Assembly: GCA_005239945.1 (NCBI GenBank)
Contig: SBAY01000326.1
Span: 1 to 13,398 of the forward strand
Length of the DNA: 13,398 nucleotides
Source: Nitrospira sp.
GTDB taxonomy: Bacteria; UBA9089; CG2-30-40-21; SBAY01
Direction of reading: 5' to 3'
Below the pieces are notes generated by a model, which saw only the letters and a program-made list of their open reading frames with translations, searched no databases and was not told the DNA's origin. Positions 6,016-13,398 of this stretch are shown one piece after another (position 1 is the stretch's first letter; every line of letters begins with the position of its first letter). The translations under genes were made by a program, and so were the position numbers.

Positions 6016-8505
6016 ATGCAAACACGAATAGGGCCCTTTTTTATTCTTCTGGGCATAACACTCCTATTTTTTGTCAATGCCTTATCTTCTGATTGGACCT
6101 TTGGCTACGGTGATATCCATCGCTATTTTTACCCAATTCGCTATTTTACCGCCTCCTCAATGAAAGAGGGTTTTCTGCCGTTGTGGAATCCGTATCTGTT
6201 TGCCGGCATTCCTAACTTAGCTGCCTTACAACCGGCGGTATTTTATCCGATTTCCATCCTACCCTATTTGTTTCCATTTTTTTATGGAATAGAACTTTTT
6301 ATCATTGTGCACTTCTTTTTAGCCAGTTTATTTACCTACCTGTTAATGAGGCATTTTAAGGTAAGCCGAGCAGGCGCCTTAATTTCAGCACTCACCTATG
6401 GTTTTGGTGGATTTCTTCTATCCGTAGTTGATATGCTCACCACGCTAAGTGCGGCTACCTGGACGCCGCTTATCTTCTTATGCTATCTTAAGGCGTTGGG
6501 GTCAGACCTTGAATATAGTAAGGCGTTGGGGTCTAAGGCGTTGGGGTCAGACCTTGAATATAGAATTTGCACACAAACGCAAATTCTATATTCAAGGTCT
6601 GACCCCAATCTTGCCAATCTTGTCTTCACCGGGCTATTTTTGGGAATCCAGTTTTTAGCCGGTGAACCCACCCAACTGTATGGCACTTTAATTACCTTGT
6701 CGCTATATACGGTGGCAAAGGCCTGGCAAATGTGGCGGCAAAAAGGGGAAAAGGAAAAAGTGACAAAAGCAAAACTGGTTAAGTTCTGCTTTCAAGGTTT
6801 GACCCCATGGCTTATTTGTTTAGGACTAACCCTTTTTCAGGTATTGCCTTTTTTGGAAATGGTTTTGCACTCAACCAGAACATCAGGGCTTAAATTCACC
6901 CATGCGACAAGCCTGTCATTGGGTCCACATGAATTACTAAACTTAGTCTTACCTTACTGGAGCGGTAATTTTATTGAAAAAAGTCATTTCTGGTTTGGAC
7001 AATCATGGTTAGAGAGTATCTACCTGGGGATTTTGCCCTTATTATTTGCCCTGGTAGCCATTGTTTTTGGACGGAAAAAAAGGATAGTGCTGTTTTTTAC
7101 CGGCATAATCTTTATTTTCTTGTTGCTTTCCTTTGGTAAGCTACTCCCCCTGTACAAGACACTTTATCAATATTTACCCGGCTTTAGCATGATTAGATAC
7201 CCGGTCAAATTCTTCTCGTTTGTTGTCCTGGGCATTAGTGTCCTGGCTGGCTTTGGGTTGGATAGGTTAGACGGCTCGGTCAAGTCAAACAAGTCTAACC
7301 TGTCCGACAAAATCTTAAAATTATTCTCTGGTTTTCTCTTGATTTATGCCGGTAGTTTTCTGGTCTTTTTTCTGAATCAACAACGGATTATTCCCTTTTT
7401 AAAGGAGATTTATTTCCCAGAAGCTCTGGATATTTATGTAGCGGCCTGGGCAGATAGTTTGTCAGGAAATTTTATGCTCGTTTGTCTGATTACCCTGGCC
7501 GGTATTCTGCTTATTTCTTTATTATTTAAGGGAAAAATCTCAACAAGGGTATTTAATCTGGGAATAATAGGCCTGGTGATTATAGACTTATTCATCTTTG
7601 GTATGAGAATCAATCCGCTTGTTCCGCAGAAAATTTATGCCTACAAGTCCCCTGCTTTAAGGTTTTTGTTACAGGATACCGATTGTTACCGCATCTTGTT
7701 AGAGCCAAAATCCGAGAGATATTTTCGAATCATCCGTGGCGAGACATTGGAAGATGCCCTGGTTGGTGTCCAGAATTCATTGGTCTCCAATTACGGGCTT
7801 TTTTATAAAATTTTTGATGCCCAGGGGTATGAATCCCTGACCTTAAACGATTACACCCGATTTTTAAAGCTGGTTACGGAACAGGGCGACTGGAATTTGT
7901 TGGATGTATTGAATATTAAATATGTGGTCTCTAAATTTGACTTGAAAATGAGGCAGTTAAAGTTAGTCTATGAGGATGAGTCAATTAAGATATACTGGAA
8001 TACTACCTGTTTGCCAAGGGCATTCTTTGTCCCAAAGGCAAGGGTAATCAGGGATAGACAAAGGGTATTGGAGGAGATGTCAGGTGTAGATTTTGACCCG
8101 CGAAAAGAAATAATTCTGGAAGAAAAAATTCGAAATCCAAATAAATTTTCGATTTTCGATTTTCGATTTTCGATTTCTTCAATCCAAAATCCAAAATCCA
8201 AAATCCAAAATCCTCGAATAATAGATTACCAGCCGAATAAAGTCATCATCACCGCTTCCTCGCCTGGTGCTTGCCTTTTATTCCTGAGCGACACCTATTA
8301 TCCTGGCTGGCGGGCTTTTATAGACGGTAAGCCGACAAAGATATATCGAGCAAACTATACCTTTAGAGCCATTAGTTTTCCTGAGGGTAGTCATACGGTA
8401 GAATTCGTTTATCTGCCTTTGAGTTTCTTAGTCGGAGTTATTGGGAGTGGGATAACGGTGTTTATATCGATAGGATTAATTTTAATGTGGAGGAAGAGAG
8501 GTTAA
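6016..8505 (+). CDS. YfhO-family polytopic membrane protein (putative glycosyl/lipid transferase)
   Basis: 829 aa. The N-terminal region (WTFGYGDIHRYFYPIRYF, LPLWNPYLFAGIPNLA, LLMRHFKVSRAGALISALTYGFGGFLL) matches the conserved YfhO N-terminus. It has many TM helices and a large C-terminal soluble domain. The ATG at 6016 directly abuts the TAG of the K+ channel gene (gtTAGATGcaa), indicating translational coupling. Confidence 0.7.
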   Translation: MQTRIGPFFILLGITLLFFVNALSSDWTFGYGDIHRYFYPIRYFTASSMKEGFLPLWNPYLFAGIPNLAALQPAVFYPISILPYLFPFFYGIELFIIVHFFLASLFTYLLMRHFKVSRAGALISALTYGFGGFLLSVVDMLTTLSAATWTPLIFLCYLKALGSDLEYSKALGSKALGSDLEYRICTQTQILYSRSDPNLANLVFTGLFLGIQFLAGEPTQLYGTLITLSLYTVAKAWQMWRQKGEKEKVTKAKLVKFCFQGLTPWLICLGLTLFQVLPFLEMVLHSTRTSGLKFTHATSLSLGPHELLNLVLPYWSGNFIEKSHFWFGQSWLESIYLGILPLLFALVAIVFGRKKRIVLFFTGIIFIFLLLSFGKLLPLYKTLYQYLPGFSMIRYPVKFFSFVVLGISVLAGFGLDRLDGSVKSNKSNLSDKILKLFSGFLLIYAGSFLVFFLNQQRIIPFLKEIYFPEALDIYVAAWADSLSGNFMLVCLITLAGILLISLLFKGKISTRVFNLGIIGLVIIDLFIFGMRINPLVPQKIYAYKSPALRFLLQDTDCYRILLEPKSERYFRIIRGETLEDALVGVQNSLVSNYGLFYKIFDAQGYESLTLNDYTRFLKLVTEQGDWNLLDVLNIKYVVSKFDLKMRQLKLVYEDESIKIYWNTTCLPRAFFVPKARVIRDRQRVLEEMSGVDFDPRKEIILEEKIRNPNKFSIFDFRFSISSIQNPKSKIQNPRIIDYQPNKVIITASSPGACLLFLSDTYYPGWRAFIDGKPTKIYRANYTFRAISFPEGSHTVEFVYLPLSFLVGVIGSGITVFISIGLILMWRKRG
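6490..6606. repeat. In-frame MITE-like palindromic element inside yfhO: direct repeats AAGGCGTTGGGGTC(AGACCTTGAATATAG) at 6490, 6520 and 6535, then a perfect 28-bp inverted repeat GGGGTCAGACCTTGAATATAGAATTTGC / GCAAATTCTATATTCAAGGTCTGACCCC with loop ACACAAAC
   Basis: Read directly from the sequence. The arms are at 6543-6570 and 6579-6606 with the loop at 6571-6578. The element is about 117 bp, a multiple of 3. It is open in the yfhO frame, where it encodes KALGSDLEYSKALGSKALGSDLEYRICTQTQILYSRSDPN. It is also open in two other frames, as shown by track ORFs 6449..6658 (+) and 6483..6686 (-). Confidence 0.8.
8146..8209. repeat. Two adjacent heptanucleotide tandem tracts inside yfhO: (TTTTCGA)x4 then (TCCAAAA)x4
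   Basis: 8146-8173 is TTTTCGA repeated four times. The spacer is TTTCTTCAA. 8182-8209 is TCCAAAA repeated four times. Both lie in frame in yfhO and encode FSIFDFRFSISSIQNPKSKIQNPRII. A related TTCGAAATCC sits upstream at 8129. Confidence 0.8.
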
Positions 8506-9366: not shown

Positions 9367-10512
9367 CTAATGGCTGATATCACCTTGTTTAACTTTAAAT
9401 ATGCACGCCTCCTTTACAAAATCTGAACTTAACTCATCTAAATGTGTTGTGGTAATAAAAACCTGTAGGCTTGCTTTATTAATATCTTTGCCTATAAAAT
9501 TTAAAAGAGCCTCCCGTTTGATTTCATCTAATTCAGAGGTTATATCATCTAACAAAAGAATAGGGAGTTCTTGAGTATGGTGGTATTGATATTGAAGTTC
9601 GGTTAATTTCAAACAAATAGCTATTGTCCTTTGTTGACCTTGAGAGGCAAAATACCTGGCATTAATATTATTTATATAAAAGGAAATATCATCTCGATGT
9701 GGCCCAATTAAGGTTGTCTCCTGCCTTATTTCATTTTCTTGTCTAACTTTCAGTTTTTCTCTAAAATCTTCCTCAACCACACAAGGTTTATAATCAATTT
9801 TTATCTCTTGTCGATGGCCACTAATCTGGTGATAAATTTCATTGATTAAAGGATTCAATTCGTTGAGTAACTCTTGTCTTTTTCTTATAATTGGGATACC
9901 TGTTTCCACTAATTGGTCATCCCAGGCCTCTAATTCTTTTAAGTCTAATTCCATATGAGGCATTATGCCCCTGTTTCTTTTGAGCATGGATAATATTTGA
10001 TTACGCTGTTTAATGATTTTGAGGTATCTCTGAAGGTTGTATAAATAACTGGGTGATACTTGAGACAGTTCGATATCAAGGAATCGTCTCCGTATTGCCG
10101 GACTACCCTTGACAATTTCCAAATCCTCCGGCGAAAAGACAACTACCTTTAATTGTCCGATTAAATCTATTATCCTTGTCAGGGCTTTATTATTTATCCT
10201 AACCTTCTTTTGAAGGCTTGCCTTGTTAAGGCTTGCCTCGTTATTAGCGGTAAATGAGATATTAATCTGGGTTTCGGTGTTTTCTTTTAATATTTTACCA
10301 TTTAAAAATAATTCCACTTCCCCAAATTTAATTAACTGTTTATCCTGGTTTGTGCGGAAGGATTTTAAAATCCCAAGAAAATAAATTGCCTCTAAAAGAT
10401 TTGTCTTCCCTGCTCCATTTTCTCCGACAAAGATGTTTATCCTTGAATCAAAGTTTAAATTCAGCTCGTTAAGATTTCGAAAGTTTTTTATGGTTATTTC
10501 TTTTAAAAACAA
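9367..10512 (-). CDS. recF: DNA replication and repair protein RecF
   Basis: 381 aa. Walker A GENGAGKTNLLEAI and the RecF-type N-terminus (KEITIKNFRNL) are present. An ABC/SMC-like signature region and a C-terminal LLLDDITSELDE Walker B/D-loop follow. A TTG start at 10512 is preceded by RBS GAGGGGG. Confidence 0.9.
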   Translation of the reverse strand: MFLKEITIKNFRNLNELNLNFDSRINIFVGENGAGKTNLLEAIYFLGILKSFRTNQDKQLIKFGEVELFLNGKILKENTETQINISFTANNEASLNKASLQKKVRINNKALTRIIDLIGQLKVVVFSPEDLEIVKGSPAIRRRFLDIELSQVSPSYLYNLQRYLKIIKQRNQILSMLKRNRGIMPHMELDLKELEAWDDQLVETGIPIIRKRQELLNELNPLINEIYHQISGHRQEIKIDYKPCVVEEDFREKLKVRQENEIRQETTLIGPHRDDISFYINNINARYFASQGQQRTIAICLKLTELQYQYHHTQELPILLLDDITSELDEIKREALLNFIGKDINKASLQVFITTTHLDELSSDFVKEACIFKVKQGDISH

Positions 10513-10535
10513 TTGTCCCCCTCATTATCCTATAA

Positions 10536-10760
10536 CTTCAATTCAGACATTAGATTTCAGGCTTTAGACATCAGACTTTTCGGTTCTTGCGGGTTTTTTG
10601 TGGAAGTGAATGATTGTAGAAACCAAAAATAATTCAATGTCCAATGTCCAATTAGCAATTAGCATTTTAAAATTATTTCTTTCATTGATGATTACTACTG
10701 CACATTTTTCTTCTCTTAGTCTAAATGTCTGATGTCTATGGTCTAATGTCTGAATTGAAG
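10536..10760. repeat. About 225-bp element filling the recF-larB intergenic region, bounded by inverted heptamer-repeat arms (about 41 nt, TCAGACA/TTAGACA-type units) with internal (AATGTCC)x2 and (AATTAGC)x2 tandems
   Basis: The left arm is CTTCAATTCAGACATTAGATTTCAGGCTTTAGACATCAGAC (10536-10576). The right arm is GTCTAAATGTCTGATGTCTATGGTCTAATGTCTGAATTGAAG (10719-10760). Its reverse complement matches the left arm except for a 7-nt indel. No target-site duplication is evident. Confidence 0.6.
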
Positions 10761-10765
10761 AAGTA

Positions 10766-11533
10766 TTATGCCATTCTTTTAGTAATCATACCGGCAAAGT
10801 AACCTGCCCCAAAACCATTGTCGATATTTACGACGACTATCCCTGGAACACAACTATTCAGCATAGTCAATAATGCCGCTAATCCTTTAAAACTTGCTCC
10901 ATAACCTATACTTGTAGGCACGGCGATAATAGGAACATTTACCAATCCTCCAACCACACTGGCTAATGCCCCTTCCATCCCGGCCACAACAATAATTACA
11001 GAGGCTTGAGTGATTTTTTCTTTCTGATTTAATAATCTATGGATGCCCGCTACCCCAACATCATATAATTTTTCTACCTTTATGCCCATAAGTTCTACAA
11101 CTACCACCGCCTCTTCTGCCACAGGAATATCTGATGTCCCGGCAGTAATAACTAAAACAGGGGTTCGTGATAAATCCAAAAAAGGAGGGGAGTCAATTAT
11201 AGTTATTGTGCCGGCAAGTGGATTGTATTGTGCGCGAGCATCAATTTTATGGATAGCATTGTATAGTTCCTCAGAGGCTCGGGTAATCAAAACATTGCTT
11301 TTTTGTTTAAGCATTGACCTGGTAATCTCAATTATATCTTCTTTCCTTTTGCCCAGTCCAAAGATAACCTCTGGGAATCCCCTTCGTAAAGCTCGGTGAT
11401 GGTCAATACGGGCAAAAGAGGTAGAGCCTAATTCCTCATACGGTAGAAATCTCAATTTATCTAATGCCTCTTCGAGCCCTAATTTTCCTTCCTTAACTTC
11501 CGCTAATAAACTCTTAATCTGGTTTGCTTCCAT
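10766..11533 (-). CDS. larB: Nickel-pincer cofactor biosynthesis protein LarB (PurE-like carboxylase/hydrolase)
   Basis: 255 aa. The N-terminal LarB-specific region (LGSTSFARIDHHRALRRGFPEVIFGLGK) is followed by a PurE-like Gly-rich fold (VITAGTSDIPVAEEA, VAGMEGALASVVGG). RBS AAGGAAAAATT precedes the ATG at 11533. No larC or larE is present in the window. Confidence 0.8.
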   Translation of the reverse strand: MEANQIKSLLAEVKEGKLGLEEALDKLRFLPYEELGSTSFARIDHHRALRRGFPEVIFGLGKRKEDIIEITRSMLKQKSNVLITRASEELYNAIHKIDARAQYNPLAGTITIIDSPPFLDLSRTPVLVITAGTSDIPVAEEAVVVVELMGIKVEKLYDVGVAGIHRLLNQKEKITQASVIIVVAGMEGALASVVGGLVNVPIIAVPTSIGYGASFKGLAALLTMLNSCVPGIVVVNIDNGFGAGYFAGMITKRMA

Positions 11534-11552: not shown

Positions 11553-11685
11553 CGGTTCAAGGTTCAAAGTTCAAGGTTCAAGGTTTTAGGATAGTAGCTA
11601 ATGAGTAGTGGGTAGCCAGGAAAATAGTTTTCCACAACCCATAACCCATCCTTGATTTTTCATTATTACCCTGAACCTTGAACCC
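11553..11685. repeat. Inverted heptamer arrays in the larB 5' leader: (GGTTCAA)x4-5 at 11553-11590 and the inverted copy CCCTGAACCTTGAACCC at 11669-11685
   Basis: Read directly from the sequence. The two arrays are reverse complements about 80 bp apart and can form a long hairpin. A small palindrome GGAAAATAGTTTTCC lies between them. Confidence 0.65.
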
Positions 11686-11694
11686 TTTCCAACT

Positions 11695-11724
11695 ATTATA
11701 CCAAATAATCTGAATTCATGTCAA
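11695..11724 (-). promoter_or_regulatory. sigma70-type promoter for larB (minus strand: -35 TTGACA, 18-nt spacer, -10 TATAAT)
   Basis: Minus-strand reading is aaaaattgaaTTGACAtgaattcagattatttggTATAAT. This places the transcription start at about 11688, immediately at the inverted heptamer array, so the arrays would be transcribed into a roughly 155-nt leader. Confidence 0.5.
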
Positions 11725-11737
11725 TTCAATTTTTTAT

Positions 11738-11767
11738 TTGACAAATTCATCTTAATTATGATAGAAT
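11738..11767 (+). promoter_or_regulatory. Candidate divergent promoter P1 (-35 TTGACA, 18-nt spacer, -10 TAGAAT)
   Basis: caattttttatTTGACAaattcatcttaattatgaTAGAAT. Its -35 lies 13 bp from the larB -35 on the opposite strand. The palindromic arrangement is TGTCAA...TTGACA. Confidence 0.4.
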
Positions 11768-11885
11768 ATGTTTTGTAAGGATAAAAACATTATAGAGGCT
11801 GATTTTCAAAGGGATACCGGCAAGGAGAAGAAACATAAAAACACCCTTTAAAAATAAAAAAAGATAACAAAAGATAAAAAATTGC

Positions 11886-11914
11886 TTGACAAATTTTTAA
11901 AAATATGTTATATT
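11886..11914 (+). promoter_or_regulatory. Strong sigma70-consensus promoter P2 (-35 TTGACA, 17-nt spacer, -10 TATATT, overlapping TATAAT)
   Basis: TTGACA at 11886-11891, a 17-nt A/T spacer, TATATT at 11909-11914, and TATAAT at 11914-11919. The predicted transcription start is at about 11921. Confidence 0.6.
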
Positions 11915-11936
11915 ATAATTGCTCACTTCTCCTTCG

Positions 11937-12000
11937 CCCAGTGCTGTAGATGTTCTTTAATAAAGAACTTAATTTACGGCACTGGGTTCTTTGTATTTGT
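11937..12000 (+). terminator. Terminator-like nested hairpin plus U-tract about 20 nt downstream of promoter P2; candidate small RNA 3' end or transcription attenuator
   Basis: The outer stem is CCCAGTGC (11937-11944) paired with GCACTGGG (11979-11986). The inner element is the perfect palindrome GTTCTTTAATAAAGAAC (11952-11968). TTCTTTGTATTTGT (11987-12000) follows. The segment before the stem is CU-rich, CACTTCTCCTTCGCC, which has anti-Shine-Dalgarno character. Confidence 0.45.
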
Positions 12001-12156
12001 AAGCGGTCAACCTTTAGATTGAAGTAATACTTCTTTTAGAAGGTATTAATCCAACCTGAAGGCTAATAACTGAACGCTTACTTTATTTTCTATTAAAAAT
12101 TCATCCCTGGAAGGGGGTTCTATATATATTTTAGAGAAATTAAGGAGATGATTAAA

Positions 12157-12270
12157 ATGGAATTTAGATGTTATTATTGCCAGACTCCTATAAACAGAGA
12201 AAATTATTTAGAGATAATGTTTAAAGGAGAAATAATTGGTTACATCTGTAAACAATGTCCAGAAAATTAA
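12157..12270 (+). CDS. Small zinc-ribbon protein (37 aa, two CxxC pairs); not in the provided ORF track
   Basis: Translation is MEFRCYYCQTPINRENYLEIMFKGEIIGYICKQCPEN. The two CxxC motifs are 22 residues apart. RBS AAGGAG (12142-12147) lies 9 nt upstream of the ATG. The stop TAA at 12268-12270 is 3 nt before the RBS of the next gene, which suggests translational coupling. Confidence 0.5.
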   Translation: MEFRCYYCQTPINRENYLEIMFKGEIIGYICKQCPEN

Positions 12271-12290
12271 GGATAGGAGGAGAGGGAAAA

Positions 12291-12749
12291 ATGAAGAGAC
12301 AATTTGAAATTGTTCCTGTAGAAGGAAGTAAAGATTTAGTTGAAATTACCTTCAAGGAAGGTTTTAAATTCCAGGTGGATAAGAAAAATAAACTCTTTGT
12401 GAAATTTGTGATGATATTGTTGCACTACGCTGGTGGTGCGGCTACCTATTTTGCTCCTCTTTTAGGATTTACCGACCGTGCCTTCCACAATATAAAAGAA
12501 TATTTCAAGGAATCCGGGATTAAATCATTCTATCACGGAAATCATTACAGACAGAATGCCCGTAAAATAATGGATGAAGATATCGGCAGGATATTAACCT
12601 TGATTGTGCAACATCCGACAGAATCTAATCGAGTGATTGCAGATAGGTTTAATGAACAAAGAGATATTAAGATAAGTTTTAGAAGTGTAGAAAGACTGCG
12701 AAATCAATATAAACTATTGAAAAAGAAGAAAAGCAAAAAAATAAAGTAA
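12291..12749 (+). CDS. Hypothetical protein with a C-terminal helix-turn-helix-like segment (transposase/resolvase-type HTH?) and a Lys-rich tail
   Basis: 152 aa from the ATG at 12291, which has RBS AGGAGGAG. The track start at 12255 lies inside the upstream small ORF in another frame and lacks an RBS. The C-terminal segment DIGRILTLIVQHPTESNRVIADRFNEQRDIKISFRSVERLRNQY has an HTH-like pattern. The N-terminal 90 aa has no motif I recognise. Confidence 0.55.
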   Translation: MKRQFEIVPVEGSKDLVEITFKEGFKFQVDKKNKLFVKFVMILLHYAGGAATYFAPLLGFTDRAFHNIKEYFKESGIKSFYHGNHYRQNARKIMDEDIGRILTLIVQHPTESNRVIADRFNEQRDIKISFRSVERLRNQYKLLKKKKSKKIK

Positions 12750-12750
12750 G

Positions 12751-12828
12751 CGGTAATCAGGTAATCAGGTAATCGGTAATCAGGTAATCGGGTAATCGGG
12801 TAATGTAGGAGACCGCTCACCGATTACC
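12751..12828. repeat. (A/G)GGTAATC hepta/octamer tandem array of about 7 units followed by its inverted copy CGATTACC; intergenic hairpin between the 152-aa ORF and the downstream HTH-TPR gene
   Basis: 12751-12804 reads CGGTAATCAGGTAATCAGGTAATCGGTAATCAGGTAATCGGGTAATCGGGTAAT. The loop is GTAGGAGACCGCTCAC. CGATTACC at 12821-12828 is the reverse complement of GGTAATCG. No U-tract follows, so it is not a classic terminator. Confidence 0.7.
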
Positions 12829-12886
12829 AGATTCCACTTCAGATGGCTAAGGTGTTACAAAAAGAGAAGGACAAGGAGGGGTGAGT

Positions 12887-13398
12887 TTGAAGGAAGGACT
12901 TTTTCTCCTGACTGTAGATGAGGTAGCAGATATTCTTCGGGTCAAACAATTAGCCATATTTAAAATGGTTTATACAGGACAAATACGCTCAATCAAGATA
13001 GGGCAGAGAACACTTCGATTTAGAAAAACCGAACCGTATAGATATATCAATGAAAAAGAGAGCCAAAAATTTTATCTTAAAGGAATGAAATTTAAAAATA
13101 TAGGGGATTTAAAAACTGCGATTATTTGCTTTAAAGACGCAAGTAGTATCTATTCCCTGAATAAATTCGCTCAGTTTGAATTGGGTAAAATTTATTATGA
13201 TAATATAAATGAGGATAAAACCTATTATGATTTAGCTAAACGCCGATTTGAGAAGGCATTGGAACTTGATTTCGAGGATAGAAATCTACATTCATATTTA
13301 ACACAGCGCAGCAGAGCCGCAACCAAATCCCAACCTAACGGTTGGAAAAGGAGGTTTATCGCTTTAACCACACCAAGGTATGTCTTTAAAACCTTCTC
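12887..13398 (+). CDS. Partial (3'-truncated by the window end) protein with an N-terminal excisionase/MerR-type HTH (HTH_17-like) followed by TPR-like repeats
   Basis: The frame stays open from 12851 to the window end. The TTG at 12887 lies 7 nt after RBS AAGGAGGGG; an in-frame GTG at 12881 is the alternative start. The N-terminus LLTVDEVADILRVKQLAIFKMVYTGQIRSIKIGQRTLRFRK matches the excisionase-family DNA-binding pattern (LTVxEAAxxLxVSxxTIYRLIxxGxLPAxKIGxxxRI). Starting at the first ATG (12965) would truncate that domain. The downstream segment YYDLAKRRFEKALELD is TPR-like. The gene is absent from the ORF track because it has no stop and no ATG start. Confidence 0.55.
   Translation, partial: MKEGLFLLTVDEVADILRVKQLAIFKMVYTGQIRSIKIGQRTLRFRKTEPYRYINEKESQKFYLKGMKFKNIGDLKTAIICFKDASSIYSLNKFAQFELGKIYYDNINEDKTYYDLAKRRFEKALELDFEDRNLHSYLTQRSRAATKSQPNGWKRRFIALTTPRYVFKTF

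Follow-up and report, generated by a model that had tools for sequence, protein, structure and literature searches.

At the downstream end of a 13,398-nt contig of Nitrospira sp. (SBAY01000326.1, assembly GCA_005239945.1), the whole of which is called here the window, three open reading frames (ORFs) follow one another on the plus strand. They encode a zinc-ribbon-like mini-protein (ORF1), a protein with a transposase-type helix-turn-helix (HTH) motif (ORF2), and a protein in which an excisionase-type HTH is combined with tetratricopeptide repeats (TPRs) (ORF3). The question raised by this locus is whether such a set of genes is what has been left by a mobile element or whether it is a regulatory unit of the chromosome that carries it. 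An original prediction for this DNA had placed the three ORFs, which indeed exist where it put them, and had assigned their domains, rightly as judged by our domain searches. It had offered as options a remnant or cargo of a mobile element, a small regulatory module, and a defence-like module, of which the second fits best. We consider it somewhat probable, on balance, that ORF1, ORF2 and ORF3 constitute a single-copy, chromosomal and lineage-restricted regulatory operon, which would encode three predicted nucleic-acid-binding proteins and which carries its own tightly conserved control region.

Conservation of the three-gene module

The co-occurrence of the three genes, which had been proposed from the window, was confirmed in related loci (designated by L numbers). 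The gene order ORF1-ORF2-ORF3 is kept in 8 of the 9 that are informative, with complete sets in L002, L003, L004, L006/7, L015, L016/17 and L019-21. The exception is L005, which has ORF1 and ORF2 and carries, in the place of ORF3, a gene for an IS4-family DDE transposase (L005 1229-2653); L012 is uninformative as to gene order, its sequence stopping after ORF2. All of these sequences come from about ten close relatives, uncultured bacteria that fall into two clades. Among 5.8 billion proteins, the ORF2 family is made up of 11 clusters (at 90%), with identities of 58-100% and lengths of 142-152 amino acids (aa). A profile search of 1.84 billion representatives rendered a single 50% cluster for ORF2, beyond which there were weak matches to small HTH_29/HTH_32 proteins. 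For ORF3, about 12 full-length clusters (90%) were found in the same 5.8 billion proteins, all of them at least 64% identical; that search gave 14 proteins, including as two entries the frameshift halves of the L015 gene.

ORF1 (12157-12270, plus strand) encodes a zinc-ribbon-like protein of 37 aa with a CxxC-22-CxxC pattern. Its start is the ATG at 12157, located 9 nt past the ribosome-binding site (RBS) AAGGAG (12142-12147), an upstream ATG at 12148 not being used. It is present in 10 distinct loci, in which all four cysteines are invariant. In 9 of the 10 it ends at 37 aa with TAA, the L002 version being two codons longer, and it is under purifying selection (median dN/dS 0.28). The ORF had been thought to be unannotated, but the exact 37-aa product is already on record for the contig. 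No family match was obtained for it in Pfam, NCBIfam, PADLOC or PHROGs; on the evidence of the invariant CxxC-22-CxxC pattern, ORF1 is predicted to be a mini zinc ribbon. It is separated by 20 nt from ORF2, with no overlap. Since ORF2 has a GGAGG of its own and the genes are non-overlapping, translational coupling between the two, as had been suggested, is possible although not required.

The control region of the proposed operon

The most striking part of the locus is the control region, which lies upstream of the segment (12157-13398) with which the original prediction dealt. The intergenic region of 620 nt that precedes the three ORFs contains three consensus promoters. The proximal one (11886-11914, plus strand), taken as the main operon promoter, is composed of TTGACA and TATATT boxes spaced by 17 nt, has a TG at the extended -10 position, and matches the sigma-70 consensus at 11 of 12 positions. 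Three AAAGATAAAA repeats phased by 10 bp are found directly upstream of the -35 box (11850-11881, plus strand; Tandem Repeats Finder (TRF), period 10, 3.2 copies). The same array is found at the matching place in L002 (9525-9558) and L015 (8656-8689), and it is visible as well in L006, L012 and L016; it is possibly an UP-element, a region of bent DNA, or a binding site made of direct repeats. From -36 to +21 the sequence is nearly invariant in 9 distinct loci, in which the DNA identity of ORF1 and ORF2 is 79% and 78%, respectively. As judged from its sequence, the operon would be expressed from a strong and tightly constrained promoter.

Transcription would start near 11921, to give a leader of 160-290 nt, depending on the locus, that is followed by ORF1, ORF2 and ORF3. 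The long structured leader proposed for this locus is real: the 252-nt leader stretch of the window folds with a minimum free energy (MFE) of -75.1 kcal/mol (z = -5.7 relative to shuffled sequences). It opens with a single-stranded 5' tail, UGCUCACUUCUCCUUCG (11920-11936, plus strand), which is identical in 9 of 9 loci and holds an anti-Shine-Dalgarno (anti-SD) sequence, CUUCUCCUU (11926-11934). The tail is followed by a hairpin, P1 (11937-11986, plus strand), consisting of a basal stem of 12 bp (11937-11948 paired with 11975-11986) and an apical GUUCUUU/AAAGAAC stem. In an RNAalifold analysis of 9 sequences none of the 12 basal pairs is disrupted; compensatory changes are seen at two of them (AU/GC; UA/CG/UG) and G.U wobbles at another two. 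A second and smaller hairpin, P2 (12103-12118, plus strand), is present in 9 of 9 loci, with a CCC/GGG stem, a conserved AUUAAAAAUUCA before it and an AU-rich tract after it. P2 was flagged as weakly terminator-like and, because its stem is invariant, it provides no evidence of covariation. A CsrA-type GGA loop in P2 was considered and rejected, GGA being found in the window only.

Between these conserved elements, the leader is variable in length. Alignment gaps delimit in the window a palindromic insertion that folds as a long hairpin (11999-12081, plus strand). None of the other loci has this insertion; they show hairpin inserts of their own at that place or after P2. Long hairpin-forming inserts, which differ from genome to genome (in the window, in L002 at 9735-9837, and in L012 and L015), are located on one side or the other of P2, in the stretch that separates it from P1 or in that which leads to the Shine-Dalgarno (SD) sequence. 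Because the conserved blocks are left undisturbed by them, the leader appears to tolerate insertions of 80-150 nt at two defined sites.

The SD block is a further conserved element of the leader. The RBS of ORF1, AAGGAGAUGA (12142-12151, plus strand), is predicted to be sequestered, the unpaired probability of the SD core being at most 0.15 in 9 of 9 leaders. In the MFE folds the SD is paired in all 9 loci, and in 6 of them its partner is the 5' tail, the UCA and UCUCCUU of which pair with AAGGAGAUGA. The leader motif was found a single time in each locus, always ahead of ORF1, across 153 kb of related DNA. No gathering-level match was obtained in the window with Rfam 15, in gathering and in permissive scans. 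A metagenome scan with a 20-mer from the leader retrieved only L009-L011, which were discarded as high-GC chance matches in unrelated contexts. The operon is probably controlled at the level of its leader.

An alternative, which we hold to be possible but doubtful, is that the upstream block is mainly something other than an mRNA leader: either (a) operator and promoter DNA bound by the operon proteins, with P1 as an inverted-repeat site, or (b) a small RNA (sRNA) of about 70 nt, composed of a CU-rich seed and a P1 terminator, that targets RBSs in trans. The invariance does extend into promoter DNA that is not transcribed, as (a) would have it, but the wobbles found in P1 (U.G 26:65, G.U 27:64 and U.G 28:63) would be mismatches in a DNA palindrome, and since pairing persists through such G.U wobbles an RNA structure is favoured over a DNA palindrome. 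As for (b), a terminator-like UUCUUU follows P1 in the clade of the window, whereas the second clade has no U-tract after P1 (GGGUAAAAUA). The best sub-threshold Rfam match is to LhrC, a CU-rich sRNA, a likeness that is weak and non-significant (22.7 bits against 110, E=1.7). Also in favour of this alternative, the 5' tail does not vary even where the SD of ORF1 changes. On the other hand, the shorter leaders have no second promoter downstream of P1 and before ORF1, and transcription of ORF1, ORF2 and ORF3 must therefore pass through P1.

Some further observations were made in the DNA upstream of the main promoter. The two other promoters of the intergenic region are near-perfect sigma-70 promoters placed back to back, one on the minus strand (11724-11695) and one on the plus strand (11738-11767). 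The 190 nt that lead up to the main promoter (region 11695-11885) are non-coding and 85-90% conserved in four LarB-adjacent loci; a small upstream ORF at 11768-11851 was rejected, since its frame is not conserved. Within this stretch, AAGGAGAAG (11822-11830) is the exact reverse complement of the invariant CUUCUCCUU of the leader, and the complementarity persists in L002 and L015 via G.U changes. In transcripts that start at the upstream promoter, AAGGAGAAG could by its sequence serve as a competing anti-anti-SD.

The predicted DNA-binding proteins

ORF2 (12291-12749, plus strand) encodes a protein of 152 aa, the start of which is fixed at ATG 12291 because the N-terminus MKR.FEI is conserved in all homologs. 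The protein comprises a three-strand beta sheet (residues ca. 5-30), a first HTH (34-79, also delimited as residues 41-96), a flexible linker, a second HTH (95-139), and a lysine-rich tail. In an AlphaFold2 (AF2) model (predicted local distance difference test, pLDDT, 72), the three-strand sheet is followed by two sets of three helices with a disordered linker between them. A PDB sequence search gave no match for ORF2; by fold it comes closest to Pax paired domains, Mos1, TnsB and Tc3. The invariant motifs TDRAFHNIK and RS.ER.R map to helices 62-79 and 130-139, which are the third helix of each HTH and, in the model, the putative recognition helices.

ORF2 matches only the N-terminal DNA-binding part (the first ca. 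115 positions) of the transposase models ISNCY_2, IS630 and IS481, with E values of 3.8e-8, 1.4e-5 and 2.7e-3 and with 17-33 bits against cut-offs of 100-250. It also reaches 20 bits against a cut-off of 33.7 with Pfam HTH_32, and its match to HTH_29 is likewise weak. The idea of a module had been considered vulnerable to an assignment of the middle protein to a well-known family with an unrelated context. The match to the transposase N-terminus goes some way in that direction, but it is far under the cut-offs and does not include a catalytic part. It had also been stated that nothing could be recognised in the N-terminal 90 aa, which holds for residues 1-33 but not for the rest of that stretch, where the first HTH is located. 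A DDE/rve catalytic domain is absent from ORF2 (152 aa, and 142-152 aa in all 11 clusters), and the next gene is that for the HTH_17-TPR protein. We regard ORF2 as a probable domesticated transposase DNA-binding module, with a beta sheet and two homeodomain-like HTHs and without a DDE domain.

The architecture of the ORF3 product can be best appreciated in its full-length orthologs, of 294-337 aa (ca. 300), which are composed of two homologous units that are 33% identical to one another. Each unit consists of an excisionase-type winged HTH (HTH_17/TIGR01764, above threshold in full-length orthologs) followed by about three TPRs; thus, the L002 ortholog scores 45.6 bits with TIGR01764 against a cut-off of 28.8. 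The tandem duplication would therefore provide each chain with two predicted DNA-reading heads and two predicted protein- or ligand-binding surfaces. A PDB sequence search and a Foldseek search with the ORF3 model rendered only generic TPR matches.

In the window, ORF3 contains the first unit only (12887-13306, plus strand), with its winged HTH and about three TPR-like repeats, as seen by domain matches and tblastn. The start is TTG 12887; the HTH_17 match has E=5e-6 and 27.1 bits against a cut-off of 27, and the TPR matches are weak. By tblastn, identity to protein P0062 is 86% across aa 1-140. ORF3 had been described as running off the window, and its frame does reach the contig end, but its homology stops at nt 13306 (aa 140). 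The final 92 nt (13307-13398, plus strand) constitute a foreign tail, unrelated to the ORF3 orthologs and with no match in any related locus, which is GC-richer than its surroundings and contains the palindrome TCCCAACC-TAAC-GGTTGGAA (13328-13347). It probably stems from an element inserted in ORF3, of which it would be the end, or from a break of the assembly inside the gene. In L015, ORF3 (9628-10559) is split by a frameshift into 174 and 131 aa. Because it is lost in L005, split in L015 and broken in the window, ORF3 may be the most dispensable or the most error-prone part of the module.

Genomic context and the question of mobility

The window is AT-rich chromosomal DNA, with a GC content of 31-49% in 500-nt windows, and its other genes are of the housekeeping type (aspartate aminotransferase-like, GTP-PEPCK-like, RecF-like, and LarB/AIRC). 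The last of these, at 10766-11533 on the minus strand and with a confirmed AIRC domain, precedes the intergenic region of the operon. No tRNA or tmRNA genes that could be possible attachment sites were found in the window. Across loci the flanks vary, LarB/AIRC being found in the window, L002 and L015, LpxC in L004 and HD-GYP in L006.

This variation of the flanking genes is among the features that could be expected if the module were a remnant or cargo of a mobile element, with ORF2 derived by decay from the N-terminus of an insertion sequence (IS) transposase and ORF3 being an excisionase that some integrative element had left behind. We regard this explanation as quite unlikely. The neighbours, though varying, are of the housekeeping kind (LarB-like AIRC, LpxC/LpxD, PFK and RecF), and no integrase, recombinase or DDE domain is encoded beside the module in any locus save for the IS4 element that adjoins it in L005, which is unrelated; an integrase was also absent within up to 10 kb in L002, L003, L004 and L006. 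ORF2 does match transposase models at their N-terminal part only, and ORF3 has an excisionase-family HTH (the TIGR01764 match in L002), but the length and frame of the three ORFs are kept across loci at 58-92% identity, with the dN/dS value given above for ORF1, and the ORF3 protein has 300 aa and TPRs as compared to the 50-80 aa of Xis proteins. The interruption of ORF3 at 13306 in the window would also suit decay. However, the module is found in a single copy per locus, and no conserved terminal repeats were detected. Attachment-site-like direct repeats, for which a search of the flanks had been proposed, are not conserved: no flanking direct or inverted repeats are common to the loci, and those present, in L003 and L004, are genome-specific elements resembling repetitive extragenic palindromes (REP-like). 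Finally, relatives were not found in IMG/VR, scanned with profiles of ORF2 and of ORF3 and with the 20-mer of the leader, nor in plasmid and phage collections, searched by tblastn with ORF2.

A toxin-antitoxin or anti-phage module, such as an MqsA-like zinc ribbon and HTH antitoxin pair or an MADS-type HTH component, is very improbable: the genes are small, tightly linked and endowed with HTH domains, the HTH of ORF3 gives a sub-threshold match to the MADS MAD1 HTH model (33 bits against a cut-off of 80), and L015 has a BrxC/PglY-like gene upstream of the module, at ca. 1.6 kb, but PADLOC matched none of the three proteins, in PHROGs nothing beyond the HTH and TPR regions of ORF3 is matched, no toxin or enzyme domain is found among recognisable parts that are all DNA-binding or TPR, the MAD1 match is restricted to the generic HTH_17 stretch, and the BREX-like neighbour is seen in one locus only.

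A model for the proposed operon

If the module is a chromosomal regulatory operon, its proteins would act as transcription factors, probably with autoregulation through the invariant promoter region of the operon. Pairing of the 5' tail with the RBS of ORF1 would keep translation low until some factor or condition opens the helix, and the TPR parts of ORF3 would receive the signal. The gene that follows ORF3 in L002 (11463-13616) encodes a protein of 717 aa in which a third HTH_17-TPR unit (48% identical) is fused to HD-GYP, REC and GGDEF domains, and HD-GYP genes are neighbours of the module in L003 (4363-6387) and L006 (38-1540). Because of this fusion and these neighbours, the signal may be tied to cyclic di-GMP (c-di-GMP).

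Several points weigh against this reading. DNA binding, autoregulation and sequestration of the SD are all predictions made from the sequence, and the invariance from -36 to +21 could stem from DNA-level constraints alone. With about ten close relatives in two clades, one covariation in P1 amounts to a single event. The helix between the tail and the SD is without covariation support since the tail never varies, and it is therefore treated as a prediction. In L005 and L006 the SD differs (AAAGAGG) and the change is uncompensated, so that the predicted pairing with the tail is lost, while in L016 the partner of the SD is a nearer CU-rich stretch instead of the 5' tail; any CU-rich run pairs with an SD. 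The distant relatives of ORF2 in L008 (58% identity) and, probably, in L022 (69%) lack both ORF1 and the leader, and on their short contigs ORF3 was not found either. As to the signal, these genomes may simply be rich in HD-GYP genes, and L004 has none nearby.

The L008 locus deserves a separate mention. The ORF2 relative it encodes (P0011), the most distant of all, is followed by two genes for receiver-only response regulators (L008 1181-2354), and the locus shares its sample of origin with L016, in which the module is complete.

A more ambitious version of the model would be that the 5' tail and P1 represent a new class of cis-regulatory RNA, bound by the operon's own Cys4 mini-protein or by its transposase-derived HTH protein and thereby controlling translation, and that the trio together with the HTH_17-TPR-HD-GYP-REC-GGDEF paralog forms an undescribed, c-di-GMP-linked master-regulator circuit built of domesticated mobile-element DNA-binding domains. 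We consider this version rather unlikely.

If the operon is what we propose, it would be a clean case of two classic DNA-binding domains of mobile elements, the paired-like HTH of transposases and the HTH of excisionases, serving as stand-alone chromosomal regulators. Moreover, both domains would have been retained together with a mini zinc-ribbon protein and with a control region whose conservation exceeds that of the genes. A trio of regulators and a candidate motif for an RNA leader would thereby become known in a little-studied group of uncultured bacteria, along with a hint of a link to c-di-GMP. The reach of the finding is nevertheless limited, since the family is very small, with about a dozen clusters among 5.8 billion proteins, and nothing points to a new biochemical principle.

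Tandem arrays in the window and in related genomes

The spacer between ORF2 and ORF3 contains a tandem array of GGTAATC(A/G) in about 7 copies (12746-12804, plus strand; TRF), with units of 7-8 nt and one inverted copy. This array had been read as a heptamer hairpin, but it folds no better than shuffled sequences (z = -0.95). A hairpin acting as terminator or attenuator was rejected, there being no significant structure. The corresponding spacers of L002 and L015 have arrays in the same place with different units.

In the window and in the L002 and L015 genomes there is roughly one short-period tandem array per kb, the units being of 7-9 and 14-15 nt. The arrays of the window are located at 2956-2984, 8145-8213, 10542-10753, 11554-11686 and 12746-12804. 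They often have an inverted copy close by, as is the case for GGTTCAA (4.6 copies, 11554-11585 versus 11668-11686), and some are intragenic, such as the ATTTTCG and AATCCAA arrays inside an ORF for an 829-aa membrane protein.

Comparison with known systems

The leader resembles those known to sequester the SD, such as translational attenuators, RNA thermometers and the expression platforms of riboswitches, in that a CU-rich anti-SD is predicted to pair with the RBS of the first gene across a structured leader. It differs from them in that the anti-SD is located at the extreme 5' end, 220 nt away from the SD, and in that large hairpin inserts are tolerated in between. Unlike leaders of the riboswitch type, it does not have an aptamer-like multi-helix core, being built of the long hairpin P1 and the small P2 only.

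With its two three-helix HTHs joined by a flexible linker, ORF2 is similar to the N-terminus of IS630/Tc1-mariner, ISNCY and IS481 transposases (HTH_29 and HTH_32, paired-like; compare Tc3, Mos1 and Pax). Unlike these transposases, it is not associated with a DDE or rve domain, either in its own chain or further downstream. Its surroundings yielded no terminal inverted repeats, and it is present in one copy per locus (in the 153 kb of related DNA). In addition, it bears an N-terminal three-strand sheet, stands alone with 142-152 aa, and scores far under the family cut-offs.

Each half of ORF3 opens with a winged HTH, as in the excisionase-family and MerR-like HTH_17 proteins (Xis/AlpA, BldC). 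BldC is a precedent for such an HTH domain serving as a transcription factor on direct repeats, although ORF3 scores 20 bits on the BldC model, the cut-off of which is 77. In contrast to recombination directionality factors of the Xis/AlpA type, ORF3 is of ca. 300 aa, has the HTH-TPR arrangement duplicated, and has no partner integrase among the genes found. It also departs from the MerR-family activators, since its HTH is followed by TPRs instead of a coiled coil and an effector pocket, and since the promoter spacer is of the optimal 17 bp and not over-long (19-20 bp).

An HTH head combined with a TPR surface, which might bind a peptide, a protein or a ligand, and encoded beside a very small ORF is reminiscent of the RRNPP regulators (PlcR, NprR, Rgg). 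No XRE or RRNPP family matches were obtained for the module proteins in family-model scans: the HTH of ORF3 is of the HTH_17 type and not XRE, its TPR part is far shorter (about three repeats per unit), and the architecture is duplicated, whereas the small ORF encodes a cytoplasmic-looking Cys4 mini-protein and not a recognisable secreted pro-peptide. The module is best read as one of HTH regulators derived from domesticated mobile-element domains, with an unusual double HTH_17-TPR architecture in ORF3 and a conserved leader that is undescribed.

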